Source: an uncultured Pseudomonadota bacterium | Lineage (GTDB): Bacteria; UBA10199; CAZHVX01 | NCBI GenBank assembly: GCA_964536295.1 | Contig: CAZHVX010000005.1 | Span: 1,613 to 27,974 of the forward strand | Reading direction: 5' to 3' | DNA: 26,362 nt | In this document: one piece after another, positions 2,440 to 24,892 of the stretch | Layout: the number at the start of each line of letters is the position of its first letter | Position numbering within the stretch: the stretch's first letter is position 1 | Notes under the pieces: generated by a model | What the model saw: the letters and a program-made list of their open reading frames with translations, nothing else | Told to the model about the DNA's origin: nothing | Databases searched by the model: none | Position numbers and translations under genes: made by a program

Positions 2440-2754
2440 ATGGGGAACTTGAGATGCGCATTTTGCCACGGCTCTGGAAAGGATCCCTTTGAAATATTAT
2501 CTAAGATGTCAACCTGTCAGGTCTGCAACGGCGTAGGCAAGAATAACATTGAGGATCCAACTCGAACGTGCGTCTTTTGTCAGGGAACAGGGGTTCATCC
2601 TTTTTCAAGGCTTTCTTGCACGGTGTGCAAAGGTAAGGGCCAGATTACATCTAAAGGTAAAGGAAAGAAGTGTTCCGATTGTCATGGGACAGGAAAATCT
2701 TTCGGCGAAAATATGCCGTGTTTGACATGTAAGGGAATGGGGGTTCTCAAATGA
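2440..2754 (+). CDS. Small zinc-finger protein made of six CxxCxGxG repeats. This is the DnaJ cysteine-rich-domain motif, here as a stand-alone DnaJ-like zinc-finger protein.
   Basis: The motifs CAFCHGSG, CQVCNGVG, CVFCQGTG, CTVCKGKG, CSDCHGTG and CLTCKGMG are present. The RBS GGAGGGAGG precedes the start. CxxCxGxG is the defining repeat of the DnaJ/Hsp40 CR domain. Confidence 0.7.
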   Translation: MGNLRCAFCHGSGKDPFEILSKMSTCQVCNGVGKNNIEDPTRTCVFCQGTGVHPFSRLSCTVCKGKGQITSKGKGKKCSDCHGTGKSFGENMPCLTCKGMGVLK

Positions 2755-3215
2755 AACCCAAGATTCTCAAAAAAAGCAATGGAAGGGCCACAATTAAGTG
2801 TACCTTTTGTCATGGTAAAGGCACGGATCCCTTTGAGGTTATGTCTAAGCTATCCCGTTGTTCGATTTGTCATGGCAAAGGTGAGGTGATGATCCAAGAA
2901 CCGTTTGCCCCCTGTGCCTATTGTCATGGTACGGGAGTCCACCGGGACAGCCGTATGAGCTGCCTGGTTTGTCATGGCAAAGGGGTTGTGCATATTGATA
3001 GATCATCGAACACCTGTGAACTTTGTGGCGGAACCGGCAGGCAGCCAGGGGAATATCTCCCTTGTCTAATGTGTAAAGGAAAAGGATTTCTTGTTCCGGG
3101 TGAAATTGTGGCCAAGCGAAAAATTAAGAGTACAGACAAAACAAAGAAGCTGGGCAAAAGTGATAGGTTGAAATTGATGAAAAAAAGAGCAACTTTTGTT
3201 AAACGTGAAACCTGA
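2751..3215 (+). CDS. Second stand-alone CxxCxGxG-repeat zinc-finger protein (six repeats) with a K-rich C-terminal tail.
   Basis: The motifs CTFCHGKG, CSICHGKG, CAYCHGTG, CLVCHGKG, CELCGGTG and CLMCKGKG are present. It shares a 4-bp ATGA overlap with the upstream paralog. Confidence 0.7.
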   Translation: MKPKILKKSNGRATIKCTFCHGKGTDPFEVMSKLSRCSICHGKGEVMIQEPFAPCAYCHGTGVHRDSRMSCLVCHGKGVVHIDRSSNTCELCGGTGRQPGEYLPCLMCKGKGFLVPGEIVAKRKIKSTDKTKKLGKSDRLKLMKKRATFVKRET

Positions 3216-3748: not shown

Positions 3749-3845
3749 ATCATGCCTCATGTTTCGTGTTTCATGCTTCATAAAATTAACAATGGTCGCG
3801 GCAACCGTCCGCCGGACGTTTGAAGCGCCCAAAAAGGAGGGTAAA

Positions 3846-4766
3846 ATGGTAGAAGAATTAACAACAGTATTGGAGCCACAATCACTACCTAATTTTGTAG
3901 AGACACCATATGTAAAAGGGGTTACTGAGCGAGCTTTAGACTATATCAAAGCTGGCTTTCCAGTCCATTTTCGTGGCGTCTCCGGCACAGGTAAGACAAC
4001 CTTGGCCATGCATGTCGCTAGTATTCTTGGCAGACCCGTGGTTATGATCCACGGTGATGAGGAATTCTCTACATCAGACCTGGTGGGAGGTGAACATGGC
4101 TACAGCATGCGGAAGGTGGTCGATAATTTTATCCATTCGGTCTTGAAGACACAGGAAGATATGACCAAAAAGTGGGTAGATAACCGCCTGACGGTTGCAT
4201 GTAAATATGGTTTTACATTGATCTATGATGAATTCACGCGGTCCCGTCCAGAGGCAAACAACGTCCTGCTTTCAATCTTGCAAGAAAAGATGATGGACCT
4301 TCCAGCGGCAAGGGAGGGTGGAGAAGGTTACCTGAAGGTAGACCCAAATTTTACCGCCATCTTTACAAGCAACCCCGAGGAATATGCCGGCGTTCATCGT
4401 TCACAGGATGCCCTTCGTGACCGGATGGTAACACTGGATCTAGATTTTTTCGATGAAGAGACAGAGGTAGAAATTACTACGGCCAAATCTGGTTTGATAA
4501 AACCGGATGCAACAAAGATAGTCAGGATCGTTCGTGACCTAAGGGAATCGGGCGTATGCGAATTTGAGCCGACCGTTCGTGGTTGTATCATGATTGCAAA
4601 GACGTTGTCCGTATCGGATGGAAATAAAGCGATTTCAGCTGATAACCGCAGGTTTGTGGCTATAGCTCAAGATATTTTGGCATCAGAGACATCACGAATC
4701 GGCTCTAAGAGCAATGAAAAGAAGGTAAAAGAAGCAATATTAAAAAGTGTTGAAAAGTACTGCTAA
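3846..4766 (+). CDS. gvpN: Gas vesicle AAA+ ATPase GvpN, copy 1.
   Basis: It has the Walker A motif GVSGTGKTT and Walker B motif LIYDEF. Its length and arrangement match GvpN, and it is ~60% identical by eye to the second copy at 5110. The RBS AAAGGAGGG precedes ATG 3846. The ORF-track start at 3759 adds an implausible leader. Confidence 0.9.
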   Translation: MVEELTTVLEPQSLPNFVETPYVKGVTERALDYIKAGFPVHFRGVSGTGKTTLAMHVASILGRPVVMIHGDEEFSTSDLVGGEHGYSMRKVVDNFIHSVLKTQEDMTKKWVDNRLTVACKYGFTLIYDEFTRSRPEANNVLLSILQEKMMDLPAAREGGEGYLKVDPNFTAIFTSNPEEYAGVHRSQDALRDRMVTLDLDFFDEETEVEITTAKSGLIKPDATKIVRIVRDLRESGVCEFEPTVRGCIMIAKTLSVSDGNKAISADNRRFVAIAQDILASETSRIGSKSNEKKVKEAILKSVEKYC

Positions 4767-4802: not shown

Positions 4803-4973
4803 ATGTCACTACTAAGAGGATTTTCAAATGTGGATAAGGAAGGAAAGATTCCGATTCCCAATAATATTAAAAGGGAATTGAAGCTAAAACCGGGCGCAAT
4901 GGTGGAGATTAGGGTAAGCGGACCCAATAATGCCCCATACATCATTGTCCGACCGAAGAAGACATTACGTTAG
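4803..4973 (+). CDS. Small protein of 56 aa with an AbrB/MazE/SpoVT-type swapped-hairpin-like motif. Candidate DNA-binding regulator or antitoxin-like protein. It is absent from the ORF track because it is under 60 aa.
   Basis: The RBS is strong (AGGAGGT, 7 nt upstream). The protein MSLLRGFSNVDKEGKIPIPNNIKRELKLKPGAMVEIRVSGPNNAPYIIVRPKKTLR contains 'G.I.IP..IR..L.L..GD.VEI' resembling the AbrB-N/MazE signature. Confidence 0.45.
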   Translation: MSLLRGFSNVDKEGKIPIPNNIKRELKLKPGAMVEIRVSGPNNAPYIIVRPKKTLR

Positions 4974-4980
4974 TTGTGTA

Positions 4981-5087
4981 CGCGGATCTAACGCCGATCT
5001 GCTACACGGATCTAACGCGGATCCATCTATTATAAATGAAAAGATCGGCGTTTGATCAGCGTTGTCGGTCTGCGTTTGATCAGCGCC
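4981..5087 (+). repeat. GATC-rich imperfect palindromic element, copy 1 of 3. It is built from GATCTAACGC / GCGTTTGATC half-sites around an AT-rich centre TTATAAAT, and ends about 10 nt before the gvpN2 RBS.
   Basis: The element cgcGGATCTAACGCcGATCTgctacacgGATCTAACGCgGATCcatctattataaatgaaaaGATCggcgtttGATCagcgttgtcggtctgcgtttGATCagcgcc has at least 8 GATC sites and dyad symmetry. Confidence 0.8.
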
Positions 5088-5109: not shown

Positions 5110-6063
5110 ATGGACTTTTTAGAATCATGTGCTATTCAAATTTCCCCGGATCAACCATCATTTGTTAAATCTCCATATATTGAGGAAATTGTTGGCCGTG
5201 CCATGAACTACATTAAAATTGGGGCACCTGTCCACTTTCAGGGACCGTCCGGTACGGGTAAGACCACATTGGCCATGTACATTGCGGGTAAATTGGGGAA
5301 GCCCACAATACTTATACATGGCGATGAGGAATTTGGCACATCAGATCTGGTTGGGAAAAGCAATGGATATCGTTCCAAACGGGTTTATGACAACTTTATA
5401 CAATCGGTTAAAAAGTTTGATGAAAAGTTCGAATCATCATGGGTTGATAACCGCCTCACCTTGGCCTGCAAACATGGCTGCACTCTTATTTACGATGAAT
5501 TTACTCGTTCGCGACCAGAGGCCAATAATGTCCTTTTATCGGTCCTGGAAGAAAAAATACTTGATATTCCAACTGCTGCTGGTTCCGAAGATGCAAACCT
5601 ACTCCACGTTCATCCGGATTTTACAGTCATTTTTACAAGCAATCCTGAAGAATATGCCGGTGTTCATAAATCGCAGGATGCCTTAAGGGATCGGATGATA
5701 ACGATTAACCTGGATCATTATGACCGGGATTCTGAAATTACTATTACAGAGAAAAAGGCGCAGGTCCCGCGAAAACAGGCCTCGATAATAGTAGATCTGG
5801 TTCGTGATTTTCGAAAAACTGAACAATATAAATTCAGTCCCACGGTGCGCGCTTGCATTATGATTGCAAAAATTTTAAAACTTGGCGGTGCAAAACCAAA
5901 CAGCAAAGACGATTTATTTATGAGGACCTGCTTTGACATCCTTGATCCGGAGACATATCGCGTTGTCGGCACTGGAAAGGAAGAGATGAATAGAAACAAG
6001 GCACGTACAATCATAACGAAGTTGGTGGCAAAACACTGCGATAATGGGGGAAAGACAAAATAA
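5110..6063 (+). CDS. gvpN: Gas vesicle AAA+ ATPase GvpN, copy 2.
   Basis: It has the Walker A motif GPSGTGKTT and is collinear with copy 1 (the motifs NRLT.ACK.G.TLIYDEFTRSRPEANNVLLS and FTSNPEEYAGVH.SQDALRDRM are shared). The RBS AGGAGGTG is present. Confidence 0.9.
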   Translation: MDFLESCAIQISPDQPSFVKSPYIEEIVGRAMNYIKIGAPVHFQGPSGTGKTTLAMYIAGKLGKPTILIHGDEEFGTSDLVGKSNGYRSKRVYDNFIQSVKKFDEKFESSWVDNRLTLACKHGCTLIYDEFTRSRPEANNVLLSVLEEKILDIPTAAGSEDANLLHVHPDFTVIFTSNPEEYAGVHKSQDALRDRMITINLDHYDRDSEITITEKKAQVPRKQASIIVDLVRDFRKTEQYKFSPTVRACIMIAKILKLGGAKPNSKDDLFMRTCFDILDPETYRVVGTGKEEMNRNKARTIITKLVAKHCDNGGKTK

Positions 6064-6407: not shown

Positions 6408-6504
6408 GCCGCTGATCTAACGCGGATCTACTACGCTGATCAAGCACAGATCTTTATAATAAAGGATCAGCGTTAGATCGGCGTTGTGGATCAGCGTTAG
6501 ATCC
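6408..6504 (+). repeat. GATC-rich imperfect palindromic element, copy 2 of 3, ending about 10 nt before the RBS of the 6525 gene.
   Basis: The element gctGATCTAACGCgGATCTactacgctGATCaagcacaGATCTttataataaagGATCaGCGTTAGATCggcgttgtgGATCaGCGTTAGATCcg has the same half-sites and AT-rich centre as copies 1 and 3. Confidence 0.8.
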
Positions 6505-6524: not shown

Positions 6525-6923
6525 ATGGAAAAACATACCGAAGAATTCACATGGCAACCATATCGACATGCAGGTGGAAAGGCTAGAGTTGGGAAAAAAG
6601 GACAACTATTAAAAGGCTCGACGTTCGATTGCGCCTTTTGTAATGGCACCGGAGAAAAGCCGCGTGGATCAAAGTGTTCAGTTTGTCGGGGCGAAGGAAA
6701 GATAAAGGTTGATCCACCAGCTGTATATTGCGCCTATTGTCATGGACGGGGTGAGACTCCACCACGCAGCAATTGTACCTGTACCGTTTGTCGTGGTAAG
6801 GGCGTGGTAAGTATCCAACAGCCGGTTGAGGCCTGTGCTCATTGTCGTGGAACGGGGGCCGAACCGGGCAACAAACTGCCTTGTTTAAAGTGCCGCGGTA
6901 AGGGTGTTGTAGCGAAGAAATAA
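6525..6923 (+). CDS. Third stand-alone CxxCxGxG-repeat zinc-finger protein (DnaJ CR-like), with an N-terminal extension.
   Basis: The motifs CAFCNGTG, CSVCRGEG, CAYCHGRG, CTVCRGKG, CAHCRGTG and CLKCRGKG are present. The RBS AAAGGAGGG precedes the start. Confidence 0.7.
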   Translation: MEKHTEEFTWQPYRHAGGKARVGKKGQLLKGSTFDCAFCNGTGEKPRGSKCSVCRGEGKIKVDPPAVYCAYCHGRGETPPRSNCTCTVCRGKGVVSIQQPVEACAHCRGTGAEPGNKLPCLKCRGKGVVAKK

Positions 6924-8546: not shown

Positions 8547-9110
8547 ATGACCGAAAAGAAAAAAGAAAAAGAAAAGGATGGAGCCGATTTTGACATTGGT
8601 AGTCTTGGAGATTTGGGTGGAACAATTGGCGGTATATTTAAGGGACTAGGTGGTTTGATTGATTTGGCTTCAAAGTTAAAAGAAGCCGGTGGTGAGATGA
8701 ACAAGGCCGGTGAGTTCGATTTAGGTGAGAAGTTTAAAAATCTCAAAGGCGCCTATGGTTTTAACATCCGAACGGCAACTGGTAAAGATGGTACGGAAAA
8801 ACCGATAGTTGAACCCATTGGCAGAAAGGTGAGGGAAACTCCCGAAGGGCCGGTGGTGGAGGAAGAACTAGAACCGATTGTCGATGTATTCGATGAGGTC
8901 GATAAAATACAGGTAGTTGCTGAATTACCGGGCGTTACAGAAGATAAGATTAGTTATGAAATCGAAGGTGATATCCTAACCTTACATGCCGAGGGAAAAA
9001 AGAAATACAGCAAGGAGATATTGCTTTCATCCGCAGTTGATAAGGATGGTGTTACTACTTCGTACAAGAATGGAGTCTATGAATTAAAGATGAAGAAAGT
9101 AAAGCAGTAG
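8547..9110 (+). CDS. Hsp20/alpha-crystallin family small heat-shock protein, with a G-rich N-terminal region.
   Basis: The C-terminal alpha-crystallin-like fold VDVFDEVDKIQVVAELPGVTEDKISYEIEGDILTLHAEG...YELKM carries the 'AELPGV' and I-x-I/V-like motifs. The RBS AGGAGGAAA precedes the start. Confidence 0.75.
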   Translation: MTEKKKEKEKDGADFDIGSLGDLGGTIGGIFKGLGGLIDLASKLKEAGGEMNKAGEFDLGEKFKNLKGAYGFNIRTATGKDGTEKPIVEPIGRKVRETPEGPVVEEELEPIVDVFDEVDKIQVVAELPGVTEDKISYEIEGDILTLHAEGKKKYSKEILLSSAVDKDGVTTSYKNGVYELKMKKVKQ

Positions 9111-9119
9111 GAGAACAAA

Positions 9120-11309
9120 GTGGCAGACAAAAAACCAAAGAAATCGCAAAAAGGCACGACAAAAAAGAATGGCCTTCCGCTCAAGGTGGCCGAGGCCTTG
9201 AGTAAAGACGTCGGTCGCGGTATTGCCAGAATTGATCCTGCTTATATGGAAAACCTGGGCGTTTCTATCGGAGATATCGTTCAAATCGATGGGAAGCGTA
9301 AAACTGTTGCCAAGATTATGCCCACATATATGGATGACCGCGGCAAGAAGCTTATACAAATAGACGGTGTTGTCAGGGAAAATGCCAAATCTGGTCTTGA
9401 TGACAGGGTGTTTGTTGACAAGGCATCACATAATCCGGCCAGTCAAATTGTCCTGACTGCGTTGACTGCGGCTCCGGCACGTGGTGAAGATGCCCGTTAT
9501 ATTGGCAGGCTTTTCGAAGGGCTTCCTTTGGTGTCGGGCGATAGGGTAAGGGCCACACTCTTTGGTACACGCTCGCGTGATTTTAAAGTGGTCAGCACCA
9601 GCCCTGAAGGTGTGGTTTTGGTAACACCCACAACAAACATAAAGATCAAGGGTGAAAAGAAGGCTGCAGAGGAAAGGGGACCTCACGAGGTTTCATATGA
9701 AGACGTTGGAGGCTTGGGTAAGGAAATAAATAAGATTCGCGAGATGATCGAACTTCCATTACGGTATCCGCAGGTCTTTGATCGTCTGGGCATTGATCCT
9801 CCAAAGGGCGTGTTATTACACGGACCTCCAGGAACTGGAAAAACTTTAATTGCAAGGGCGGTTGCCCATGAATCGGAGGCAAACTTTTTTTCCGTTAACG
9901 GTCCTGAGATTGTGCATAAATTTTACGGTGAATCAGAGGCGCATCTTCGATCCATTTTTGAAAAGGCGGCGGAGGCGGCTCCTTCAATAATCTTTATTGA
10001 TGAAATAGATGCCATTGCGCCCAAACGTGCCGAGGTGACTGGCGATGTGGAAAAGCGCATCGTTGCTACACTTCTGGCTATGATGGACGGGCTTAAAGGT
10101 CGGGGTCAAGTCATTGTTATTGGCGCCACAAATATTCCAGATGTTATGGATCCGGCGCTTCGTCGTCCGGGCCGTTTTGATCGAGAGATTGTGATCGGTA
10201 TTCCAGACAAGAATGGCCGTGAACAAATTTTAGATATTCACACGCGAGGTATGCCACTGACCGAAGATGTCGACATTGGACATTTTGCGGCAATTACGCA
10301 TGGCTATGTTGGCGCCGATTTGGAAGCGCTTGCTCGTGAAGCAGCTATGATTTCGCTTCGTAAGGTCTTCGATAAGGTGGATTTTAATCTCGATGAAATA
10401 CCTTATGAAACATTGGTTTCTTTGGAAGTCAACATGGATTGTTTTATTCGGGCGCTCAACGAAGTTACACCCTCGGCCATACGCGAGGTCTTTGTAGAGG
10501 TTCCGGATGTTAAGTGGGAAGATGTTGGCGGTCTTGAAGATACGAAAGAGATCCTTAAAGAAACAGTGGAGTGGCCTTTAAAATATGAAAGACTTTTTGC
10601 TCATGCGAACGCCAAGGCGGCCAAAGGTATTTTGTTGGACGGCCCTCCGGGAACGGGTAAGACCTTGCTAGCAAAGGCCCTGGCCAATGAGAGTGAGGTG
10701 AACTTTATCTCCATTAAAGGACCTGAGCTCATAAGTAAATGGGTCGGCGAAAGTGAAAAGGGCGTTCGTGAAATATTCAAAAAAGCCAGACAGGCTGCTC
10801 CTTGCATTTTGTTCTTTGATGAAATCGACAGCATTGCACCAAGACGCGGTGGAGGCGAAGGAGATTCCGGTGTTACCCAAAGGGTTATAAGCCAATTTTT
10901 GACTGAACTCGACGGCCTTGAAGAGTTAAAGGGCGTGGTGATCCTGGGGGCAACCAACCGAAAAGACATCCTTGATCCAGCATTGATTCGTACCGGCAGG
11001 TTTGATTTATCAATAACACTCCCGATACCCGATTTCAAATCCAGAGAGGCAATATTCGAGGTCCATACAAGGAATAAGCCATTGGAGAAAAAGATCAATT
11101 TTAAGGAGATGGCCAGGGCAACTGAAGGTATGGTTGGGTCCGATATCGAGGAAGTGTGCCGGCAGGCTATCATGTTGGCGTTAAGAGAGTTTATCCACAA
11201 ATATGAGGATGACGCCAACAAGGAATGTGAGAAGTTCAAGGTCAAGGCCTCTCATTTTACAGAGGCATTAAAATACATAAAGAAGCAAAAAAGAGGTACA
11301 AGCCAATGA
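9120..11309 (+). CDS. Cdc48/VCP/VAT-type ATPase with two AAA domains and an N-terminal Cdc48-N domain.
   Basis: N-domain: [37 protein letters not shown]1 has Walker A GPPGTGKT, Walker B IIFIDEID and the SRH motif [14 protein letters not shown]2 has [17 protein letters not shown] and [10 protein letters not shown]. The start is GTG with AGGAG 8 nt upstream. Confidence 0.9.
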
Positions 11310-12346
11310 AATATTTTCATGGTATCATAAGTAAGGGGGAGGAAATAAATTTCGGCTCCATTGGATTTCCACTTGCGGATTTTGAAACAAAATTTGGTAA
11401 TGTATTTACAGTTCCCTATGAAAATATGGGGGCAGTAGTCAGCGACATAGACGATATGGATTTTCAAACCCCGGATAAAGAGATGTTGGTACGAAGACTT
11501 TTGGTTCATCAAAAGGTGTTGGAGCATGTTGTTAAAGAAGGTTGTGGAATTTTGCCTGTGAAATTTGGTACGTGTCTAAATGATGTCGATGAGGCCTTGA
11601 AAGTTATGAAGATTGGTTATTTTAAATTCGAAGATGCAAGCAGAAGAATGGGGAAAAAACACGAGCTGGATTTGGTGGTTACATGGGATACTAATAAGAA
11701 GCTTAAAGAGGTAGCCCTGGAAAGTCAGGAAATACAACACTTTAAGCAGAAGATTGAAAAGATGCCAGAATCTAAATCTGCCGCTGAAAAGATGAAGATA
11801 GGGATGATGCTTCAAAAAGAGCTTCATCACGTCCGGGACGGAATTTCACGTGAGATTTTGTCGACCCTGGTTGATATTACCAAGAGTCGATCGGACCACG
11901 AGCTTATGGATGATAATATGGTAATTAATTCATCTTTTCTTTTGAATGACATGGAGGAAAAGACATTTGATAAAATATTGGCTGGGCTGGATTCCAGGTT
12001 TAACGGCGAATTGAATTTTAAATGTTTAACACCACTACCACCATATAGTTTTGCTACTGTTGAAATCAAAACGATAGAATTTGAAGAAATAGAAAAGGCC
12101 TGGAACTTGTTTGATTTTGGGAAAAAGACAACACTTAATGAAATTAAGGAAGTTAATCGGAAACTAACCAAGGAATGGCATCCTGATAAAAGGCCAGGGG
12201 ATCATGAGGCCCAGATCAAATTTGAAGGCCTGAACACCTCATATAAAACACTTTTGGATTATTGTGAAAGTGGGAAGGCCTCCCTTCCCAAAAAGGGCGA
12301 GAAGTTTTTTAAAGTAAATGTCGTTAAGGCAGAGGAGATGTTATGA
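11306..12346 (+). CDS. gvpF: GvpF/GvpL-family protein fused to a C-terminal J-domain (DnaJ-type, HPD motif).
   Basis: The N-terminus and core (YFHGIIS...AVVSD..., LVHQKVLEHV, LPVKFGT, and C-terminal LNFKCLTPLPPYSF) are collinear with the GvpF paralogs at 12343 and 13201. The C-terminal 75 aa, NEIKEVNRKLTKEWHPDKRPGDHEAQIKFEGLNTSYKTLLDY, carries the J-domain HPD tripeptide. There is a 4-bp overlap with the upstream cdc48-like gene. Confidence 0.8.
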   Translation: MKYFHGIISKGEEINFGSIGFPLADFETKFGNVFTVPYENMGAVVSDIDDMDFQTPDKEMLVRRLLVHQKVLEHVVKEGCGILPVKFGTCLNDVDEALKVMKIGYFKFEDASRRMGKKHELDLVVTWDTNKKLKEVALESQEIQHFKQKIEKMPESKSAAEKMKIGMMLQKELHHVRDGISREILSTLVDITKSRSDHELMDDNMVINSSFLLNDMEEKTFDKILAGLDSRFNGELNFKCLTPLPPYSFATVEIKTIEFEEIEKAWNLFDFGKKTTLNEIKEVNRKLTKEWHPDKRPGDHEAQIKFEGLNTSYKTLLDYCESGKASLPKKGEKFFKVNVVKAEEML

Positions 12347-13092
12347 CTACAGAAGGCAAGTATATATATTGCATCATCGGAACCAGTGATCCAAGGCACT
12401 TTGGTCCCATCGGCATCGGTGAACGGAACGATGAGGTGACTACAATTGGTGCCAGGGATATCTCTGCCATTGTCAGCAATACTCCGATGGAAAAGTATGT
12501 TGTCAGTAGAGAAAATCTAACTGCCCATGAAAAGATAATTGAAAAGGTGATGTCAGAATATACGGTGTTACCCGTCCGCTTTTGTACCGTTGCTACCAGT
12601 ACGCAGGAGGTGATGGATTGCTTGAAGAGGCGTTATCCCGAGTTCAAAAACCTGCTAAGAGATATGGATAACAAGGTAGAAGTTGGTTTGAAGGTAGTTT
12701 GGAATGACATGCAAACGGTGTTCGATGAACTTGTAGCTGAAAATGATGATATAAGACAGATGAAAGAAGCTGGCAAAATAAAGAAACGTAATGATTTAAT
12801 AAATGCTGGTAAAATTGTCGAAGCCATCTTGGAAGAGAAAAGAAGTATGGAGGAGGGAAGATTATTTCGTGACTTAAAGAAGGTTGCATCAGATTTTAAG
12901 AGTGCCAAGCGACATGGTGATAATATGTTGACCAATGCTGCGTTTCTGCTCGATAAGGGACGGCAGCGAGCATTTGATAATCAAGTAGAAACTTTGGTGG
13001 AGGAGAATAAGGATCGATTTACGGTTAATTATGTCGGTCCGGCACCTCCGTTTAATTTTGTAAACATTGAGATAAAATTTGCAGGGGAATAA
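12343..13092 (+). CDS. gvpF: Gas vesicle protein GvpF/L family.
   Basis: The N-terminus KYIYCIIG... and the C-terminal VGPAPPFNFV are typical GvpF features. There is a 4-bp overlap with the upstream gene. Confidence 0.85.
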   Translation: MTTEGKYIYCIIGTSDPRHFGPIGIGERNDEVTTIGARDISAIVSNTPMEKYVVSRENLTAHEKIIEKVMSEYTVLPVRFCTVATSTQEVMDCLKRRYPEFKNLLRDMDNKVEVGLKVVWNDMQTVFDELVAENDDIRQMKEAGKIKKRNDLINAGKIVEAILEEKRSMEEGRLFRDLKKVASDFKSAKRHGDNMLTNAAFLLDKGRQRAFDNQVETLVEENKDRFTVNYVGPAPPFNFVNIEIKFAGE

Positions 13093-15112: not shown

Positions 15113-17089
15113 ATGGAGAATAAAAAATCTCCATCCTTTTTGACTAATGGTCAAAAAAGACTGATATTTTTTGGTGGCAAAGGCGGCGTGGGTAAAACCA
15201 CCACCGCCGCCGCGTCAGCCATTTTTATAGCCAGGCAATTTCCTCAAAAAAAGGTTCTTGTTCTCTCCACCGATCCCGCACATTCCTTGTCCGATTGTTT
15301 TGAGATATTGCTTAATGATGAGGTTTCTTCGATAAATGGGTTGTCGAACCTCTTTGCTAGAGAATTAGATGCTGCTCGTTTATTAGATGCGTTCAAAGAT
15401 AAGAATGAAAAGATTATCAAGGTGTTGGCCGAAAGGGGAACCTATTTTGATAATGAGGATATTGAAAGTTTCTTTTCTTTATCACTCCCCGGTATGGATG
15501 AAGTAATGGCGGTTATAGAGATATATAATCTTTTTGTAAAAGGTGAGTATGAAACGATTATTATCGATACCGCGCCTACCGGCCATACTATGAGACTGCT
15601 TTTACTTCCTAACCAACTGGAGCAATGGATAGATCTTTTTAACTTGATGCAAGAAAAGCATCGGATCATGACTCGCCGTTTTTCCGGAAGATATGCGCCT
15701 GATGAGGCAGATAAATTTCTTGAAGATTTGACTCATGACCTGAAAGAAATGAGGAGCCTGCTTTCCAATCCTGCTATTACGGAGTTTGTTCCAATCACCA
15801 TCCCTGAGAAAATGAGCTTTAATGAAACGTGTAGACTTCTTGGGGTCTTGAGAGATTGTCATATGCCGGTAAGGAATATTATTGTTAACAACGTGATAAA
15901 GTCTGAGTCTTGTGAATATTGCCAAAAACAATATGAGGCACAAAAATCTGCCATAGAAAAAATCAGGAATTTATTTAAAGATTTTAATATAATGCACATG
16001 CCGCTATATCCGAAGGAGGTGCGGGGAGTCAATGCGCTCAGCGAATTTGCAGGCAGTTTAGTGGGTGAAGAAGTAAACTTTCAAGGGATGGTTCATAGGT
16101 CCAAAAGGAGTGATGGTGATCAACGTATCAAACTTGAACGTTTTCTAAACGACGATTTACAGATGTTGCTTGTTGGAGGCAAAGGAGGAGTTGGAAAGAC
16201 ATCAATTGCAACTGCACTTGCATTAAAGTTTTCCGGGAAATATCCAGATAAAAAAGTCTTACTTTTTTCTACCGATCCTGCCCATTCCTTGTCGGATAGC
16301 CTTGGGCAAGAAATAGGGAATAAAGTAACACAAGTCCAGGCAAGGCCTCTTGCTTCAAATTTATTTGCCATCGAAATCAATGCTGAAAAACTATTTGATG
16401 ATTTCGCAAAAAAATACAAAAGAGAAATAGATGATGTATTTGATGGTTTTTTCAATAGCTCATCTACAGCGGGAATGGATTTTAGCTACGATCGAAGTCT
16501 GATGAAAAAACTTATAAACGTATCGCCTCCTGGACTGGATGAATTGATGGCCTTAAAGGAAATCATGAATTACATAGATAAAGATACATACGATTTCTAC
16601 ATCTTGGATACCGCTCCAACTGGGCATTTGCTACGTTTTTTGGAGCTGCCTTCATTGGTACAAGGCTGGCTGAAGGCAATCTTTAGGCTTTTGATTAAAT
16701 ATGAAGGTATGGTGAATTTGAACAGTGTGGCAGAAAAGATGGTGGAACTTTCAAAGAGTGTAAAGCGGATCAAGGCGATCCTTTGCGATTCCAAAAGGGC
16801 CAAATTTCTTGCAGTTACTATTCCTGAAGCAATGGGGTTTGAAGAGACAAAAAGGCTTGTGGATTCACTTCACAATTTGGATATAGCGTGCACGGGTCTT
16901 GTCATTAATAAAATTTTCCCCAGTGTAAAGTGTGGCTTTTGTGGAATAAAAAGGGACGAACAATTAGAATATGCTAAAAAGATAGAGAAGAAACTTAATA
17001 TAAAACATGTTGCCCGCGTACCTCTGTTTCCATCAGAGATCGTGGGGGTTGAAAAATTAACAAAGTTTGGAGACAGAGCTTTTTATTAG
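15113..17089 (+). CDS. Fused tandem ArsA/Get3-family ATPase (two complete ArsA-like halves).
   Basis: There are two deviant Walker A P-loops (GGKGGVGKTTTAA and GGKGGVGKTSIAT). There are two STDPAHSLSD motifs. Two A-loop or signature motifs, DTAPTGHT(M/L)R(L/F)L, are present. The fused-dimer architecture is typical of ArsA and Get3 anion-pump or tail-anchored targeting ATPases. Confidence 0.85.
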   Translation: MENKKSPSFLTNGQKRLIFFGGKGGVGKTTTAAASAIFIARQFPQKKVLVLSTDPAHSLSDCFEILLNDEVSSINGLSNLFARELDAARLLDAFKDKNEKIIKVLAERGTYFDNEDIESFFSLSLPGMDEVMAVIEIYNLFVKGEYETIIIDTAPTGHTMRLLLLPNQLEQWIDLFNLMQEKHRIMTRRFSGRYAPDEADKFLEDLTHDLKEMRSLLSNPAITEFVPITIPEKMSFNETCRLLGVLRDCHMPVRNIIVNNVIKSESCEYCQKQYEAQKSAIEKIRNLFKDFNIMHMPLYPKEVRGVNALSEFAGSLVGEEVNFQGMVHRSKRSDGDQRIKLERFLNDDLQMLLVGGKGGVGKTSIATALALKFSGKYPDKKVLLFSTDPAHSLSDSLGQEIGNKVTQVQARPLASNLFAIEINAEKLFDDFAKKYKREIDDVFDGFFNSSSTAGMDFSYDRSLMKKLINVSPPGLDELMALKEIMNYIDKDTYDFYILDTAPTGHLLRFLELPSLVQGWLKAIFRLLIKYEGMVNLNSVAEKMVELSKSVKRIKAILCDSKRAKFLAVTIPEAMGFEETKRLVDSLHNLDIACTGLVINKIFPSVKCGFCGIKRDEQLEYAKKIEKKLNIKHVARVPLFPSEIVGVEKLTKFGDRAFY

Positions 17090-18651: not shown

Positions 18652-18682
18652 GTGTATGAGTGTATGAGTTGGAGAGTTGAAT
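18640..18682 (+). promoter_or_regulatory. Intergenic module 4 (short): GTGCATAA GTGTATGA GTGTATGA GTTGGAGA octamer units upstream of the four-helix-bundle gene.
   Basis: The GTGTATRA unit family is the same as in modules 1 to 3. Confidence 0.45.
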
Positions 18683-19048
18683 ATGAAAATAGAGAGATTT
18701 GAAGAATTAGATTGCTGGAAGGCAGCACGGGAACTAGTGACAATAGTTTACAAACTTACACGAGAGAAAATGTTTAGTAGGGATTTTGGATTGAGGGATC
18801 AAATTCAAAAAGCTGCTATTTCAACAATGGCAAATATCGCCGAGGGGTTTGCTGCCAATTCGGATAGGGAATTCATTAGATTCCTAGGATATGCAAGTCG
18901 TTCTGCTATTGAAGTTCAATCACATTTATATGCTACCCTCGATTTAGAATATATAGAGCATGATCAATTTGATAAGGCCTTCAATAAGGCTCAAGATTGT
19001 ACAAATTTATGTAGAGGTTTAATTCGATATTTAAAAACAAAAACTTAA
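18683..19048 (+). CDS. Four-helix-bundle protein of the '23S rRNA intervening-sequence / S23 ribosomal protein' family.
   Basis: The protein MKIERFEELDCWKAARELVTIVYKLTREK...RDQIQKAAISTMANIAEGFAANSDREFIRFLGYASRSAIEVQSHLY is the characteristic pattern of this small, widely scattered family (..W..A..L...IY.LT..FP..E...L..QL.RAA.SI..NIAEG....S..E...FL..A.GS..E....L). The assignment is motif-based. Confidence 0.6.
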   Translation: MKIERFEELDCWKAARELVTIVYKLTREKMFSRDFGLRDQIQKAAISTMANIAEGFAANSDREFIRFLGYASRSAIEVQSHLYATLDLEYIEHDQFDKAFNKAQDCTNLCRGLIRYLKTKT

Positions 19049-19568: not shown

Positions 19569-19952
19569 ATGGCGAGGATTCCTTCAAAAAGTGGGCTGGA
19601 TACATTAAAGGTGCGCAGGGAGCCAAGGCTCGTTAATAACGAACCGGTCCTTTTGTGGCAACAAGGTTCTTACGATTGCGGCAGCTCCTTATCGTCAAGC
19701 TGGAAGCTGGGATTTATATGCTTAACAAAGAATAACATATACTTCCTCCAGGGAAAGCGATGTGTCCTGGAGATAGACTCTCAGCAGATAAGAGAAATTA
19801 CTATTCTAAAAAGAAGTTGGGTCTTGGGGAAGGTGATTGATCAATTGTTTATTAGGATCGTAGACGCAATACAAAGGACAAAGAAATATTACTTTGGTGT
19901 CGATAAACCTGAAAGGTGGAAAGAGGCAATCGAGGGGGTAATAGATGGCTAA
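19569..19952 (+). CDS. Bacterial PH/GRAM-like domain protein, translationally coupled to the DnaK-like gene by an 8-bp overlap.
   Basis: The segment PVLLWQQGSYDCG...WKLGFICLTKNNIYFL resembles the N-terminal PH/GRAM-like module of 21678-22550 (EKVILKSKGGLNDG..WRMGEICLTNERLLFL). It is shared by two proteins flanking dnaK. Confidence 0.5.
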   Translation: MARIPSKSGLDTLKVRREPRLVNNEPVLLWQQGSYDCGSSLSSSWKLGFICLTKNNIYFLQGKRCVLEIDSQQIREITILKRSWVLGKVIDQLFIRIVDAIQRTKKYYFGVDKPERWKEAIEGVIDG

Positions 19953-21681
19953 AGTCATAGGTATAGACCTAGGGACAACGTATTCAGTAATGGCTTACTT
20001 GGATAACGGTAAGGCGAAGATCATCCCTAACGCCGAAAAAGAGCACCTAACTCCTTCTGTGGTGGGCTTTGATGCCTTGGAACACGCCTTTGTTGGGGAT
20101 CTTGCCAGGCGCCAATCTGCCATTCATCCCGATCGAACGGTTGCATCCATCAAACGAAAGATGGGAACTAACCATCGTGTAAAAATAGGATCGAAAGAAT
20201 ATTCGCCTCAAGAAATCTCGGCGTTTATACTCAAAAAACTAAAAAGGGATGCAGAAAAATATCTTGGCGACGAAGTCAAGCAAGCTGTGATTACAGTTCC
20301 AGCATATTTTAACGATTCACAACGTCAAGCTACCAAAGATGCAGGAAAGATTGCAGGGCTAGAAGTGCTGCGTATAATCAACGAACCAACGGCAGCATCA
20401 TTGGCTTATGGTCTTGGCCACGGCGGAACACAAACCGTTTTGGTGTGGGACTTAGGAGGTGGAACATTTGATGTTTCCATACTGGAAATTGGCGAAGGGG
20501 TGTTCGAAGTTAAATCAACTTGTGGAAATACACAGTTGGGTGGTGACGATTGGACGGAACGGATTGCCGATTTTGCCATAAAAGAATTTGAATCGAAACA
20601 TGGCGCCTTTCCCAAAGATAACCTGATTGCAATGCAAAGGGTAATAAATGCTGCGGAAGAGGTCAAAATAAAAATTTCTCATGCAAGGGAAGTGAATATA
20701 AACGTACCGTTCATATCTAACAATGGAGATAAACCAGAGCATTTGGATTGTAATCTTTCCAGAGAAGTTTATGAAGACTTTACCGCTGATCTTTTGGAGA
20801 AGCTGATTGGTCCTACCAGGCGAGCTTTAGAAGATGCCGGGCTTACGCCGGAAAAAATAAACCACGCGGTTTTGGTTGGCGGCTCTACCAGGATGCCTGC
20901 GGTTCAAGCTAAAGTCGCTGAACTGATGAGCAAACAGCCTTTTAAAGGTGTAAACCCAGATGAGGTGGTTGCCATTGGTGCGGCAATTCAGGCCGGGGTC
21001 TTAACCGGAGAGGTGACCGATGTAGTCTTGGTGGACGTTGTTCCACTTTCATTAGGGATTGAGACACTCGGCGGTATATTTGCCAAAATAATGAGTCGCA
21101 ATACCACCGTTCCTACTTCCAAGAGCCAGATATTTACAACTTCGGCAGACAATCAAATCGAAGTCGATATCCACATCCTTCAAGGTGAACGTGAGCTGGT
21201 TGCAAATAATACTTCATTAGGCAATTTTAAACTGGTGGACGTTTCACCTGAAGCTCGGGGCGTTCCTAAAATTGAAGTGACCTTTGATGTTGATGCCGAT
21301 GGTATTCTAAGCGTTTCTGCAAAAGATCTATATACAGAGAATGAACAACGAATTCAAATTAGCTCACCAACGGCATTATCTTCTGAAGAAGTGGAACAAA
21401 TGGTTACGGAAGCCAAGTCACATGCCGAAGATGATCGCAAAAAACGAGAGGAAATAGAACTTACTATCAAGGCAGACAATGTTGTTTATGCCGCATTGGA
21501 AACAATGGAAGAAAAAGGCGATTTGTTTGACAAGGTTGAATTGAAACAGGCAAATACGTTGGTGAATAAAATAAAAGCAGCCTTGAAAGAAAACAACTGC
21601 GAACCTTTACCAAGTTTGATGGAAGAGTTAAGGGTGTTGATGGAAACCGTGTGCAACAAAAAAACTAAGGAAAAGGTATGA
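19945..21681 (+). CDS. dnaK: Hsp70/DnaK-family chaperone, a short paralog of 578 aa.
   Basis: The Hsp70 signature motifs IGIDLGTTYS, DLGGGTFDVS and VVLVDVVPLSLGIETLGG (substrate-binding domain) are present. It lacks roughly 50 to 60 C-terminal residues, including the lid end, compared with canonical DnaK. Confidence 0.9.
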   Translation: MAKVIGIDLGTTYSVMAYLDNGKAKIIPNAEKEHLTPSVVGFDALEHAFVGDLARRQSAIHPDRTVASIKRKMGTNHRVKIGSKEYSPQEISAFILKKLKRDAEKYLGDEVKQAVITVPAYFNDSQRQATKDAGKIAGLEVLRIINEPTAASLAYGLGHGGTQTVLVWDLGGGTFDVSILEIGEGVFEVKSTCGNTQLGGDDWTERIADFAIKEFESKHGAFPKDNLIAMQRVINAAEEVKIKISHAREVNINVPFISNNGDKPEHLDCNLSREVYEDFTADLLEKLIGPTRRALEDAGLTPEKINHAVLVGGSTRMPAVQAKVAELMSKQPFKGVNPDEVVAIGAAIQAGVLTGEVTDVVLVDVVPLSLGIETLGGIFAKIMSRNTTVPTSKSQIFTTSADNQIEVDIHILQGERELVANNTSLGNFKLVDVSPEARGVPKIEVTFDVDADGILSVSAKDLYTENEQRIQISSPTALSSEEVEQMVTEAKSHAEDDRKKREEIELTIKADNVVYAALETMEEKGDLFDKVELKQANTLVNKIKAALKENNCEPLPSLMEELRVLMETVCNKKTKEKV

Positions 21682-22550
21682 AAAAAGTAGCATTAAATCC
21701 CAATGAAAAAGTAATCCTCAAAAGCAAAGGCGGCCTAAACGATGGTAGTCAGTCACGTTGGCGAATGGGAGAAATTTGTCTTACAAACGAGAGGCTTTTA
21801 TTTCTCCAACCCTTTGGAATTACTTGTGAAATAGCATTATCCTCGATGGACGAAGTGGGTGTGGAGAAAAAGGACTATGCCTTCGGTCAGAAAAATGCGT
21901 TGTTCTTGAAATATAAGCACAATAATGAGGGCAATGATAAGCATGGCACAATTTGGGTAGTTACGCCAGAGCTGGATAGGTGGAAGGAAAAGCTTTGTGG
22001 TTGGATGCTGATTCAAGTGACTGAAGAAGATTTGGGCAAGGTCTGTGAAAAATTAGATCCGGACTCGGAACGAATTGTTTGGCACTTTTGGGAGGTATCG
22101 CACGCTCGCATCGATGAGCTGGCAACTCTCATTGGTGCTTCGGCGCATATGGATGTGCTCATAAAGATAAGGAACGAGATCAACAAGGTTGCCAGTGAAA
22201 TATTAGGATATCCGTTATTGACATTTGATGTATCCAAAAAAGATCCGGAAACCGAAAAGGATGTTACCTATAGTTGGTGGCTGATAGGCCGTGGCGGTAG
22301 GACAATATCCAAAGAGACTTTTTGCGATGTGTTTGACGAGGGAAAACAATTGGTGGTGGTGGTTGAATTGCTTGGCGTTGATGATAAAGACCTCGATCTT
22401 CAAATAGATCAAAAACGTATTCGGATCAACAATTCAAGTAATGGGAATTGTGAAAAGGAGGTATTCTTGCCCGTCGAAATTGTAGTCGATAAGATCCAGC
22501 AACGTTTTAATAATGGGATTTTGGAAATCAGGGCAACAAAAAGGGGCTGA
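21678..22550 (+). CDS. Two-domain protein: an N-terminal bacterial PH/GRAM-like domain and a C-terminal Hsp20/alpha-crystallin-like domain.
   Basis: The N-terminus parallels 19569-19952. The C-terminal segment QLVVVVELLGVDDKDLDLQIDQKRIRINN...VFLPVEIVVDKIQQRFNNGILEIRATK resembles an alpha-crystallin beta-sandwich. There is a 4-bp overlap with dnaK. Confidence 0.55.
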   Translation: MKKVALNPNEKVILKSKGGLNDGSQSRWRMGEICLTNERLLFLQPFGITCEIALSSMDEVGVEKKDYAFGQKNALFLKYKHNNEGNDKHGTIWVVTPELDRWKEKLCGWMLIQVTEEDLGKVCEKLDPDSERIVWHFWEVSHARIDELATLIGASAHMDVLIKIRNEINKVASEILGYPLLTFDVSKKDPETEKDVTYSWWLIGRGGRTISKETFCDVFDEGKQLVVVVELLGVDDKDLDLQIDQKRIRINNSSNGNCEKEVFLPVEIVVDKIQQRFNNGILEIRATKRG

Positions 22551-22657: not shown

Positions 22658-23380
22658 ATGAAAGATTATTACGAAATATTGGAGGTGCATCCACGAGCTA
22701 GCCAGGAGGTTATCAAAAAGGCCTATCTGGTTTTGTCCAAGCGTTATCACCCGGATGCCCATGACAGTGAAAGGGCTGGCTGGGCCGAGGAAAAGTTCAA
22801 GGTGATAAATGAGGCCTTTCAGACATTGGGTGATTTAGTTAAGCGCAAGGGGTATGATTTGGATCGAGAGGGTAGCGATGATTATGAATACTGCGAGGAA
22901 GAAGAAGTTGAAATCGATGAGAAGGCATATTTTCACTATCGCTTAGGGTTAGATCATTTTGAAAAAACGGATAAAAGAAGATTCATGTCGGTATTGCTGG
23001 GTAGTTGGCAACGAAACTTGAAGTTGGCTCAAAAATATTTTTTAAAGGTTGTTCGTACATTCCCTACTAGTTATTATACTGACCAATCTCAGTATCATTA
23101 TATAGTATGCTTGATGCGTGAGTATGATTACTCAGAAAAACATGCACAATTGGTAGAAAAAGAGACAGAAATGTTTTTAAAATGTTATCCGGAAAGTGAA
23201 TGTAGAGACATTTTTTACTATCAACTAGGTCAGTTTTATTTGTTAAAGCGACAAGACTATAATAAAGCCATTGAAAACTTGAAGCTATTTTTGGCAGCCT
23301 GTCCTGAATCCTCTAATGCAAAGGATGCAAGATGTTTGCTAAAGTATACTATCAGTCGTCAGTCATCAGCTGACAGCTGA
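22658..23380 (+). CDS. J-domain protein (N-terminal DnaJ J-domain with HPD motif) with a C-terminal helical, TPR-like region.
   Basis: The segment DYYEILEVHPRASQEVIKKAYLVLSKRYHPDAH...KFKVINEAFQTLGD is a canonical J-domain. The remainder is helical with Y/L/K-rich repeats resembling TPR. Confidence 0.75.
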   Translation: MKDYYEILEVHPRASQEVIKKAYLVLSKRYHPDAHDSERAGWAEEKFKVINEAFQTLGDLVKRKGYDLDREGSDDYEYCEEEEVEIDEKAYFHYRLGLDHFEKTDKRRFMSVLLGSWQRNLKLAQKYFLKVVRTFPTSYYTDQSQYHYIVCLMREYDYSEKHAQLVEKETEMFLKCYPESECRDIFYYQLGQFYLLKRQDYNKAIENLKLFLAACPESSNAKDARCLLKYTISRQSSADS

Positions 23381-24789: not shown

Positions 24790-24892
24790 CGCGGATCTAA
24801 CGCCGATCTGCTACACGGATCAAACGCTGATCTATTTATTATAAAAGGATCTGTGTTAGATCTGTGTAGTAGATCTGCGTTAGATCGGCGGC
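24790..24892 (+). repeat. GATC-rich imperfect palindromic element, copy 3 of 3, ending just before the aminotransferase start.
   Basis: The element cgcGGATCTAACGCcGATCTgctacacgGATCAAACGCtGATCTatttattataaaagGATCTgtGTTAGATCtgtgtagtaGATCtGCGTTAGATCggcggc has a left arm nearly identical to copy 1. Confidence 0.8.

Follow-up and report, generated by a model that had tools for sequence, protein, structure and literature searches.

The stretch of DNA analyzed here (the window) comprises 26,362 nucleotides of contig CAZHVX010000005.1 (GenBank assembly GCA_964536295.1) from an uncultured Pseudomonadota bacterium, and it contains a single long gas vesicle (gvp) cluster on the + strand that runs from gvpA (330–545) to a J-domain/TPR gene ending at 23380. 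Encoded within the cluster is a double-AAA ATPase of the Cdc48/VAT type, situated between a small heat-shock protein (sHsp) of the Hsp20 family and a GvpF protein fused to a J-domain. It is very probable that this enzyme is a dedicated gvp-cluster Cdc48 that is paired with Hsp20. The gene, its domains and its immediate neighbors are as follows.

8547–9110, + strand: Hsp20/GvpH-like sHsp (Pfam and NCBIfam matches), with the N-terminal clade-specific motif GGIFKGLGGLIDLA
9120–11309, + strand: Cdc48/VAT-type double-AAA ATPase of 729 amino acids (aa), GTG start (TIGR01243, VAT match, Pfam, motifs)
9180–9662, + strand: Cdc48 N-domain (CDC48_N plus CDC48_2), aa 21–181 (Pfam PF02359, PF02933)
9810–10385, + strand: first AAA domain (D1) and lid, aa 231–422, with Walker A GPPGTGKT, KFYG, Walker B DEID and RRPGR Arg fingers
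10629–11189, + strand: second AAA domain (D2) and lid, ~aa 504–690, with Walker A GPPGTGKT, KWVG, Walker B DEID and the second region of homology (SRH) RTGRFD
11306–12346, + strand: GvpF/L with a C-terminal J-domain fusion (GvpL_GvpF 143 bits; DnaJ 36.8 bits against a cut-off of 27.8; HPD present)
12343–13092, + strand: GvpF/L paralog, the last gene of the tight block (Pfam GvpL_GvpF 201 bits; 4-bp overlap with GvpF-J)

The Cdc48 protein and its gene block

GTG is the sensible start codon of the Cdc48 gene, since the sole nearby in-frame Met sits within the N-domain, and a GGAG ribosome-binding site lies 6 nt 5′ of it. The initial annotation had described the product as a Cdc48 N-domain followed by two AAA domains with intact motifs, as in archaeal VAT, and Pfam, TIGR01243, the VAT structure 5g4f and the motif alignment all agree with that description. 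Pfam matches to CDC48_N (93.6 bits against a cut-off of 35.1; aa 21–103) and CDC48_2 (53.5 bits against 22.4; aa 121–181) point to both parts of the N-domain, the double-psi barrel and the beta-clam, and are accompanied by two AAA (307 bits) and two AAA_lid_3 matches. Across the aligned N-domains of 12 gvp-linked proteins, 29 columns are invariant. The NCBIfam model for the “CDC48 family AAA ATPase” (TIGR01243) scores 952.1 bits, with a cut-off of 802.65, over aa 21–722 of the 729. The closest solved structure by sequence is VAT of T. acidophilum (5g4f; 734 bits, E 1.8e-219, aa 16–690), followed by plant CDC48A (660 bits), human p97 (~656 bits) and yeast Cdc48 (616 bits).

The open reading frame (ORF) is a bona fide Cdc48/VAT-type ATPase whose catalytic and pore-loop residues are intact in both AAA domains. 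By alignment, Walker A, Walker B, the SRH and the Arg fingers are preserved in each of the tandem classic-clade domains, and the pore loops of both rings are aromatic (KFYGESE in D1 and KWVGESE in D2). From homology to VAT (5g4f, 5vc7), the protein is predicted to form a hexamer of two stacked rings and to thread its substrate through a central pore.

Models of other AAA families do not take in the ORF. It falls outside the GvpN model TIGR02640, and AAA_5 gives a weak, generic P-loop match of 43 bits. The Mpa/ARC model TIGR03689 reaches 407 bits against a cut-off of 505, and the PAN equivalogs (NF047748, NF047747) reach 492 against 750 for Pan1 and 469 against 700 for Pan2. The ORF does pass the PAN subfamily models PRK03992 and TIGR01242, albeit only because the scores of two AAA domains sum. 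No ClpB family occurs among the listed Pfam and NCBIfam matches, which include a generic AAA_2 match of 46.6 bits.

The window protein ends in ...KRGTSQ and does not carry an HbYX motif. A penultimate Tyr is found in one of 68 members of the gvp-linked clade versus 19 of 45 archaeal Cdc48s, and the HbYX tail as such is missing from 67 of the 68 and present in 19–25 of the 45. The gvp-linked clade has lost the C-terminal proteasome-docking motif.

VAT and archaeal Cdc48 share with the window protein the N-D1-D2 order, aromatic pore loops in both rings and intact Walker and SRH motifs. In contrast to them, the window protein is bacterial, lacks an HbYX-type tail, falls in a separate bacterial clade, and is encoded in a gas vesicle operon rather than at a heat-shock or housekeeping locus. 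The eukaryotic p97/VCP/Cdc48 proteins have the same domain order and belong to the same TIGR01243 family (616–660 bits). The D1 pore loop of p97 is non-aromatic, however, and the aromatic D1 loop, KFYG in the window protein, is the VAT/archaeal state. The window gene also differs from p97 in a context without a ubiquitin system, UBX protein or Ufd1-Npl4 adaptor, and in the short, basic tail of its product.

The genes for Hsp20, Cdc48, GvpF::J and GvpF are separated by gaps of 9, −4 and −4 nt. Hsp20 upstream, GvpF-J downstream and a 4-bp overlap between Cdc48 and the latter had all been reported, and each is confirmed: the Cdc48 stop (TGA) and the GvpF-J start (ATG) overlap as ATGA at 11306–11309. 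The overlap had been taken as an argument for co-translation, a wording that is better replaced by translational coupling. The same 4-bp overlaps occur between the called genes of four related loci (L001, L085, L086 and L087; loci are cited by L numbers throughout), and a GvpF::J fusion comes directly after Cdc48 in L001, L086, L087, L088, L091 and L092. When the Hsp20-Cdc48-GvpF block was scanned for internal promoters and terminators, nothing rose over the shuffle background. As a separate observation, the GvpF/L::J-domain fusion is kept in many such clusters (L001, L086–L089, L091, L092 and L173). A J-domain on GvpF would bring Hsp70 directly to the GvpA-binding protein family.

The window Hsp20 is matched by Pfam HSP20 at 24.1 bits (cut-off 20.8) and fits the NCBIfam “archaeal Hsp20” model (E 1e-31) far better than any bacterial sHsp model, while the Pfam GvpH match is weak (19 bits against a cut-off of 22). 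Gvp-linked Hsp20s, namely the window protein (aa 20–45) and 84 related ones, share an N-terminal motif, GGLFKG[IL]xxL[IV]DLA followed by ...AGGE..K.GE, and the GGLFKG[IL]xxL[IV]DLA motif is absent from archaeal Hsp20s adjacent to Cdc48. The motif is a candidate docking element. A p97-type SHP box (FxGxGxxh) was also considered for the Hsp20 N-terminus and rejected, because merely 31 of the 84 gvp-linked Hsp20s fit it. GvpH of haloarchaea is likewise an Hsp20-like accessory protein, and RefSeq names the Methylosinus Hsp20 “GvpH”; unlike the window Hsp20 gene, gvpH of Halobacterium is not followed by a Cdc48 gene.

Linkage to gvp clusters and shared descent

A survey of cdc48 and gvp co-occurrence, as proposed in the initial annotation, found gvp linkage in 10 of 11 homologs, 56 of 65 metagenomic loci, three metagenome-assembled genomes (MAGs) and the plasmids of two isolates. 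A search of 5.8 billion proteins returned the identical protein once, with the next matches forming a dense cloud at 64–68% identity. The 11 homologs were picked from that range for their long contigs and their spread over a neighbor-joining (NJ) tree, irrespective of context, and in every one of them an Hsp20-like gene lies upstream of Cdc48. The one that is not seen amid gvp genes (P0102) has DnaK, ArsA, zinc-finger protein and Hsp20 genes upstream on a truncated contig. The usual order is gvpA-x-x-gvpN-x-Hsp20-Cdc48-GvpF::DnaJ-GvpF-GvpF-GvpG-...-GvpK-GvpF-GvpA-like.

Among species-representative genomes, the three closest bacterial matches, which are the MAGs (Flavobacteriaceae, Chlorobiaceae and Peptococcaceae), are all flanked by gvp genes; the archaeal matches, at 45–57% identity, are not. 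The metagenomic loci came from a scan that was seeded with the N-domain of gvp-linked proteins and returned 80 loci. Because of this seed, the metagenome sample leans towards the clade, a bias from which the 11-homolog and genome look-ups are free. The 65 loci counted above are those with at least 1.5 kb of usable flank, and seven of them, on short contigs, show only accessory cluster genes (zinc finger, Hsp20, ArsA and DnaK). The two isolates are the cultured strains Methylosinus sp. C49 (plasmid pMSC49b) and Methylocella tundrae T4 (plasmid p1), whose gvp clusters end in GvpH/Hsp20, a hypothetical gene and a “CDC48 family AAA ATPase”. In a small sample approached from the gvp side, two of five bacterial species with a plasmid-borne gvpN have the gene. 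Relatives down to ~58% identity thus lie almost all inside gvp clusters, in keeping with the earlier view that the gene belongs functionally to the cluster, and the opposite expectation, that of a housekeeping Cdc48 at unrelated loci in relatives, was examined and does not hold.

The invariant genomic partner of the gvp-linked Cdc48 is the upstream Hsp20, which lies within 1.5 kb in 67 of 74 loci. A single-domain ArsA gene stands between the two in 22 of the 74 (L096, L104, L113–L118, L173 and others), an arrangement that suggests an Hsp20-ArsA-Cdc48 functional trio. As an aside, some Hsp20s of related loci match Pfam ArsA_HSP20. The gene immediately downstream of Cdc48 is of the GvpF type in 27 of 41 loci; in the other 14, Cdc48 is the end of the cluster, in the order ...GvpK-GvpF-GvpM-DnaK-(PH/Hsp20)-Hsp20-Cdc48. 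Among relatives, it is Hsp20 rather than the GvpF-J emphasized at first that is the constant partner.

NJ trees were built from simple distances over 122–125 full-length sequences with 200 bootstraps, and a core gvp-linked set was delimited that excludes the Peptococcaceae, methanotroph and cyanobacterial outliers. Core sequences form a clade without any archaeal sequence in 99.5% of the 200 bootstraps, and the smallest clade with all core proteins adds only L101 and L133. The nearest neighbors of the gvp-linked proteins of Peptococcaceae and methanotrophs are core members. The initial annotation had asked whether the AAA domains group with VAT, with actinobacterial proteins or apart; in these trees, the gvp-linked proteins appear as a separate bacterial clade next to archaeal Cdc48. 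Its remark that the architecture is sparsely distributed in bacteria is an understatement, as this bacterial clade is large and essentially defined by gvp linkage. The actinobacterial Cpa and ARC/Mpa proteins, which are double-ring or proteasome-associated bacterial AAA proteins, are distant relatives. An actinobacterial locus (L070) encodes a protein of 35% identity on a long branch; in the final NJ tree, its weak grouping (22% bootstrap) is with other divergent sequences from bacteria that stand next to the core clade.

Cdc48 has diverged in step with the rest of the cluster. Over 34 loci, the correlation of its pairwise distances is r = 0.85 with GvpN distances, r = 0.90 with Hsp20 and r = 0.81 with GvpF-J, at a Mantel p of 0.001, and without the two most divergent loci the respective values are 0.82, 0.88 and 0.81. 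Within the same sample, the mean pairwise distance is 0.34 for Cdc48 and for GvpN alike. This co-divergence, together with a degree of conservation like that of GvpN, argues that Cdc48 has long resided in the cluster and is strongly constrained.

As to where the pair came from, ten archaeal Cdc48 loci without gvp genes have Hsp20 close by and usually adjacent. The archaeal Hsp20 genes are found on either side of Cdc48 and on the same strand (L007, L008, L009, L011, L014, L019, L020, L021, L035 and L064). Two heat-shock regulons of Euryarchaeota, Phr and HSR1, are made up of an sHsp together with an AAA+ ATPase (PMC10653856). Because archaeal Cdc48 genes often adjoin Hsp20, the pair looks like a heat-shock module of archaeal type, and the better fit of the window Hsp20 to the archaeal model is a likeness to the modules of Phr (Pyrococcus) and HSR1 (Archaeoglobus) in particular. 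It differs from them in being fixed in a bacterial organelle-biogenesis cluster and in the clade-specific N-terminal motif of its Hsp20, and the window ORFs that were scanned include no regulator of the Phr/HSR1 type. An archaeal-type heat-shock Hsp20-Cdc48 module was presumably recruited once into an ancestral bacterial gvp cluster, after which the gvp-linked Hsp20s would have gained their N-terminal motif.

Variant homologs were also noted. The cyanobacterium Iningainema tapete (L058) has a double-AAA protein of ~625 aa (9698–11572) that aligns from D1 onward (query aa 191–724), with 47% identity to the window protein over D1-D2; a Cdc48-type N-domain was not detected in it. Its gene is ~1 kb downstream of an ArsA gene and ~6–8 kb from gvpN, gvpJ and gvpF. 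Longer Cdc48 homologs of 1024–1520 aa are found in P0002, P0005, L055 and L071, and the intein and LAGLIDADG domains of P0005 suggest an intein inserted in its AAA domains.

Possible roles of the enzyme

Any proposal for the function of Cdc48 has to be read alongside the other chaperones and ATPases of the window, which are as follows.

330–545, + strand: gvpA, the major shell protein and presumed ultimate client class (NCBIfam GvpA 133.8 bits, cut-off 100)
2440–2754 and 2751–3215, both + strand, and 6525–6923: three stand-alone DnaJ-type CXXCXGXG zinc-finger proteins (Pfam PF00684 40.7, 46.8 and 44.2 bits)
3759–4766, + strand: GvpN copy 1, the canonical gvp AAA+ protein of MoxR/AAA_5 type (TIGR02640 343 bits, cut-off 267)
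5110–6063, + strand: GvpN copy 2 (TIGR02640 329 bits, cut-off 267)
15113–17089, + strand: two-domain ArsA/Get3-type ATPase (TIGR00345 488 bits)
19945–21681, + strand: DnaK (Hsp70), 578 aa (NCBIfam PRK00290 778 bits, cut-off 648)
21678–22550, + strand: second sHsp of the cluster, 290 aa, with a C-terminal archaeal-type Hsp20 domain (NF041800 E 4e-15, aa 211–288)
22658–23380, + strand: J-domain and TPR protein, product of the final chaperone gene in the cluster (Pfam DnaJ 74 bits; YfiO/TPR matches)

DnaK is also encoded within the same clusters in L085, L087, L089 and L092. The two GvpN copies counted in the initial annotation both exceed the model cut-off. Like Cdc48, GvpN is an ATPase of gvp clusters and about equally conserved; unlike Cdc48, it is a single-domain MoxR/AAA_5 protein without an N-domain, a second ring or classic-clade pore loops. 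Since both GvpN copies are present beside it, Cdc48 is no replacement for GvpN.

The clients of such a chaperone set are suggested by earlier work on gas vesicles. GvpA, GvpJ and GvpM aggregate without chaperones, and monomeric GvpA is bound by GvpF (PMC9501494). The Hsp20-like GvpH may hold GvpM soluble, and loss of GvpH leads to fragile vesicles (PMC4390858). Proteotoxic stress is reported to arise when gas vesicles are expressed heterologously (PMC12848028).

Tentatively, and with a near-even chance of being correct, Cdc48 is proposed to be a proteasome-independent unfoldase/disaggregase that works with Hsp20, DnaK, J-domain proteins and ArsA on aggregation-prone proteins of the GvpA family. 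Hsp20 would hold the very hydrophobic GvpA/GvpJ/GvpM-type proteins, or misassembled Gvp intermediates, and Cdc48 would pull apart misassembled or aggregated molecules, unfolding them without degradation. The freed molecules could then be handed to GvpF::J, DnaK and ArsA/Get3 and inserted into the growing shell. As a whole, the scheme would parallel the sHsp-Hsp70-ClpB triad in a gvp-dedicated form, driven by a Cdc48 motor instead of ClpB. The proposed logic is that of the sHsp (IbpA/B)-DnaK/DnaJ-ClpB system, which leads from a holdase to an Hsp70/J-protein pair and on to a double-ring AAA+ protein, and all three classes are encoded in the cluster. The differences are that the window motor is of the Cdc48 type, with a Cdc48 N-domain, and that the cooperation of the window proteins is deduced. 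Assembly-phase chaperoning fits the context at least as well as the recycling of GvpA or the quality control of ribs that had been put forward in the initial annotation. That context includes Hsp20, a J-domain GvpF, DnaK, DnaJ-type zinc fingers and ArsA/Get3, while both a protease and a proteasome-docking tail are absent.

Several observations weigh against a dedicated Cdc48 of this kind or temper its scope. Strict monophyly of the gvp-linked set is recovered at just 46–56% NJ bootstrap, since two Synergistetes sequences that are not gvp-linked move in and out of the clade; the gvp-linked clade plus Synergistetes reaches 53–78%. These non-gvp Cdc48s join the gvp-linked clade in the trees. NJ leaves the archaeal sister group unsettled, which makes both the number of transfers and their direction a matter of inference. 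Two of the 65 metagenomic loci are without any cluster gene, namely L133, which lies amid two-component genes, and L101. In Octadecabacter arcticus, the order is gvpN-Hsp20-gvpF and no gene intervenes between the last two, and Spartinivicinus ruber lacks both Hsp20 and Cdc48 genes. Nor is Cdc48 known from the classical clusters of Anabaena, B. megaterium, Serratia and Halobacterium. As the gene is not universal in gvp clusters, it is not essential for shell assembly in general. Finally, the client could be any Gvp protein, given that substrate and timing come from inference.

The two Synergistetes sequences deserve a separate comment. They stem from Synergistaceae and Fretibacterium MAGs (L034 and L036), and the L034 protein has a degenerate D2, with HFDNID at Walker B and loss of the Arg-finger region. 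Synergistetes Cdc48s may be escapees from gvp clusters.

A different use of the same enzyme would be in recycling or disassembly, whereby Cdc48 extracts GvpA from collapsed or unwanted vesicles for reuse or for an active reduction of buoyancy. Enzymes of the Cdc48/VAT family do extract subunits from stable assemblies, the pore loops are aromatic in both rings as in the processive VAT, the gene is dedicated to gvp clusters, and the co-encoded Hsp20, DnaK and J proteins could take up extracted subunits. Sequence does not separate this from assembly-phase chaperoning, but Cdc48 sits in a coupled block with assembly factors (Hsp20-Cdc48-GvpFJ-GvpF) without visibly separate control, no protease for disposal is encoded among the window ORFs scanned, and many formers of gas vesicles lack the gene. 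On balance, recycling is regarded as a serious rival, though an unlikely one. The same grade is given to a more ambitious version, in which the clade would be a bacterial, ubiquitin- and proteasome-independent Cdc48 that remodels the gas vesicle shell through Hsp20-guided extraction of GvpA-family subunits from walls or amyloid-like aggregates. If this were true, cells could enzymatically edit, repair, recycle or dismantle their gas vesicles, which are otherwise thought to be lost solely via collapse or dilution.

Another possibility is that the pair, together with DnaK and DnaJ, buffers stress in general, as part of a mobile gvp island that relieves the host-wide load of Gvp overproduction with no specific Gvp client. 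The ancestry of Hsp20-Cdc48 as a general archaeal heat-shock module (PMC10653856), the proteotoxic stress reported for heterologous gas vesicle expression (PMC12848028), and the occurrence of such clusters in many phyla and on plasmids are all compatible with this. Nonetheless, the J-domain is fused straight to GvpF, a member of the GvpA-binding family, the N-terminal motif of gvp-linked Hsp20s is not shared by archaeal Cdc48-adjacent Hsp20s, and the divergence of Cdc48 closely follows that of GvpN and GvpF-J. Together, the J-domain fusion, the Hsp20 motif and the co-divergence suggest specialization for Gvp clients, and a general buffer is accordingly thought rather improbable.

Much less probable is the feeding of a protease, in which Cdc48 would deliver a regulator or one of the Gvp proteins to a peptidase for degradation, in the manner of archaeal Cdc48-20S or the GvpD-dependent loss of GvpE. 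Archaeal Cdc48 can dock on the 20S proteasome, and the PAN and Mpa models of NCBIfam also score on the window protein, although these scores either miss the cut-offs or reflect generic AAA similarity. The tails speak against it, as HbYX is missing from nearly the whole clade and present in a good part of the archaeal sequences. Moreover, the window ORFs that were scanned match no protease or proteasome family, the listed related loci have no such gene called, and most host phyla named for the homologs are not known to have 20S proteasomes. Lastly, an ordinary housekeeping Cdc48 that merely happens to sit in a gvp cluster, as might be imagined from the Cdc48 paralogs of Halobacterium gvp plasmids (~27 kb from gvpN and outside the cluster) or from L133 as a clade member in a non-gvp setting, is already contradicted by the survey, in which dozens of divergent clusters from several phyla have Hsp20 and Cdc48 in the same place and Cdc48 divergence follows that of the gvp genes.

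An association between gas vesicles and Cdc48 was not found in 8 million open-access papers and preprints, and mention in a subscription journal is possible. Within the same open-access literature, gas vesicles combined with AAA ATPase and gvpF returned nothing, gas vesicles combined with unfoldase returned only an engineered use of ClpXP, and nothing relevant was found on the recycling of collapsed vesicles. The searched passages of Castillo & Saier 2010 (PMC2963123) place arsA and hsp20 in gvp clusters of Polaribacter, Pelodictyon, Geobacter uraniireducens and cyanobacteria, and a Cdc48 gene is unmentioned in them. A 23.5-kb cluster of Desulfobacterium vacuolatum DSM 3385 (FWXY01000008 1268–24724), which is like the present cluster type by size alone, gave rise to vesicles in E. 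coli (Hurt et al. 2023). RefSeq already names such genes “CDC48 family AAA ATPase”, so the sequences are public and it is the association that appears unreported. The gene is probably missing from the gvp canon because the classical model clusters lack it.

The accepted list of gvp genes derives from a few model clusters without Cdc48, and assembly is still poorly understood. Comparison of the loci shows the Hsp20-Cdc48 pair to be an integral and conserved element of many bacterial gvp clusters, which make up a large, phylogenetically widespread class and often also have GvpF::J, DnaK, DnaJ-type zinc fingers and ArsA/Get3. Vesicle biogenesis may therefore include an ATP-driven proteostasis step that has so far gone unstudied, and such a step could help to explain the failure or toxicity of many clusters in acoustic reporter work with E. 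coli. For Cdc48 biology, the gain would be a rare prokaryotic case with narrow, identifiable clients and no ubiquitin or proteasome, in which the adaptor logic of the ancestral enzyme would become directly testable. The arrangement is available in cultured strains (Methylosinus sp. C49 and Methylocella tundrae T4), and the finding should interest researchers of gas vesicles and AAA+ proteins alike because it is directly testable.

Further features of the cluster

Some of the accessory proteins show additional traits. The 290-aa Hsp20-domain protein has weak, below-threshold matches to bacterial PH domains in its N-terminal part, and a small ORF before DnaK (19569–19952) resembles it at the N-terminus and has no Pfam match. 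Related gvp clusters have homologs of the zinc-finger proteins in the same places.

Directly after gvpA are two genes (603–1274 and 1377–2369) for charged, apparently coiled-coil proteins, homologs of which come after gvpA in most related loci. The second of them has protein-level repeats (...HAKMAKEL..KLSTEEAQR.KETT.EI..R...), and Tandem Repeats Finder detected no DNA-level repeats in either gene. These proteins may be GvpC-like shell stiffeners.

Possible regulators were noted as well. Between the gvpN copies, 4803–4973 encodes a small DNA-binding protein of the AbrB/MazE/SpoVT kind (weak Pfam match), and similar genes occur in the related clusters L092 (5558–5728) and L175 (16774–17094); the protein may be a cluster regulator. 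In many related clusters, a PAS histidine kinase and a sigma-54-dependent response regulator precede the gvp genes (upstream regions of L085–L087, L174 and L175). This suggests sigma-54 control of the cluster type, for which the window begins too near gvpA to show such genes.

Between GvpF and GvpM, 18677–19048 encodes a “23S rRNA intervening sequence protein” (four-helix-bundle, Pfam 103 bits) that recurs in the related clusters L091 and L092. Finally, an intergenic repeat made up of direct and inverted copies of GGATCTAACGC(N)GATC is present at 4984–5058, 6413–6504 and 24793–24887, with nine matches versus 0.16 expected by chance. Two of the three sites are within the gvp cluster, one before the second gvpN and one before the third zinc-finger gene, and the element resembles a repetitive extragenic palindrome (REP) or a miniature inverted-repeat transposable element (MITE).

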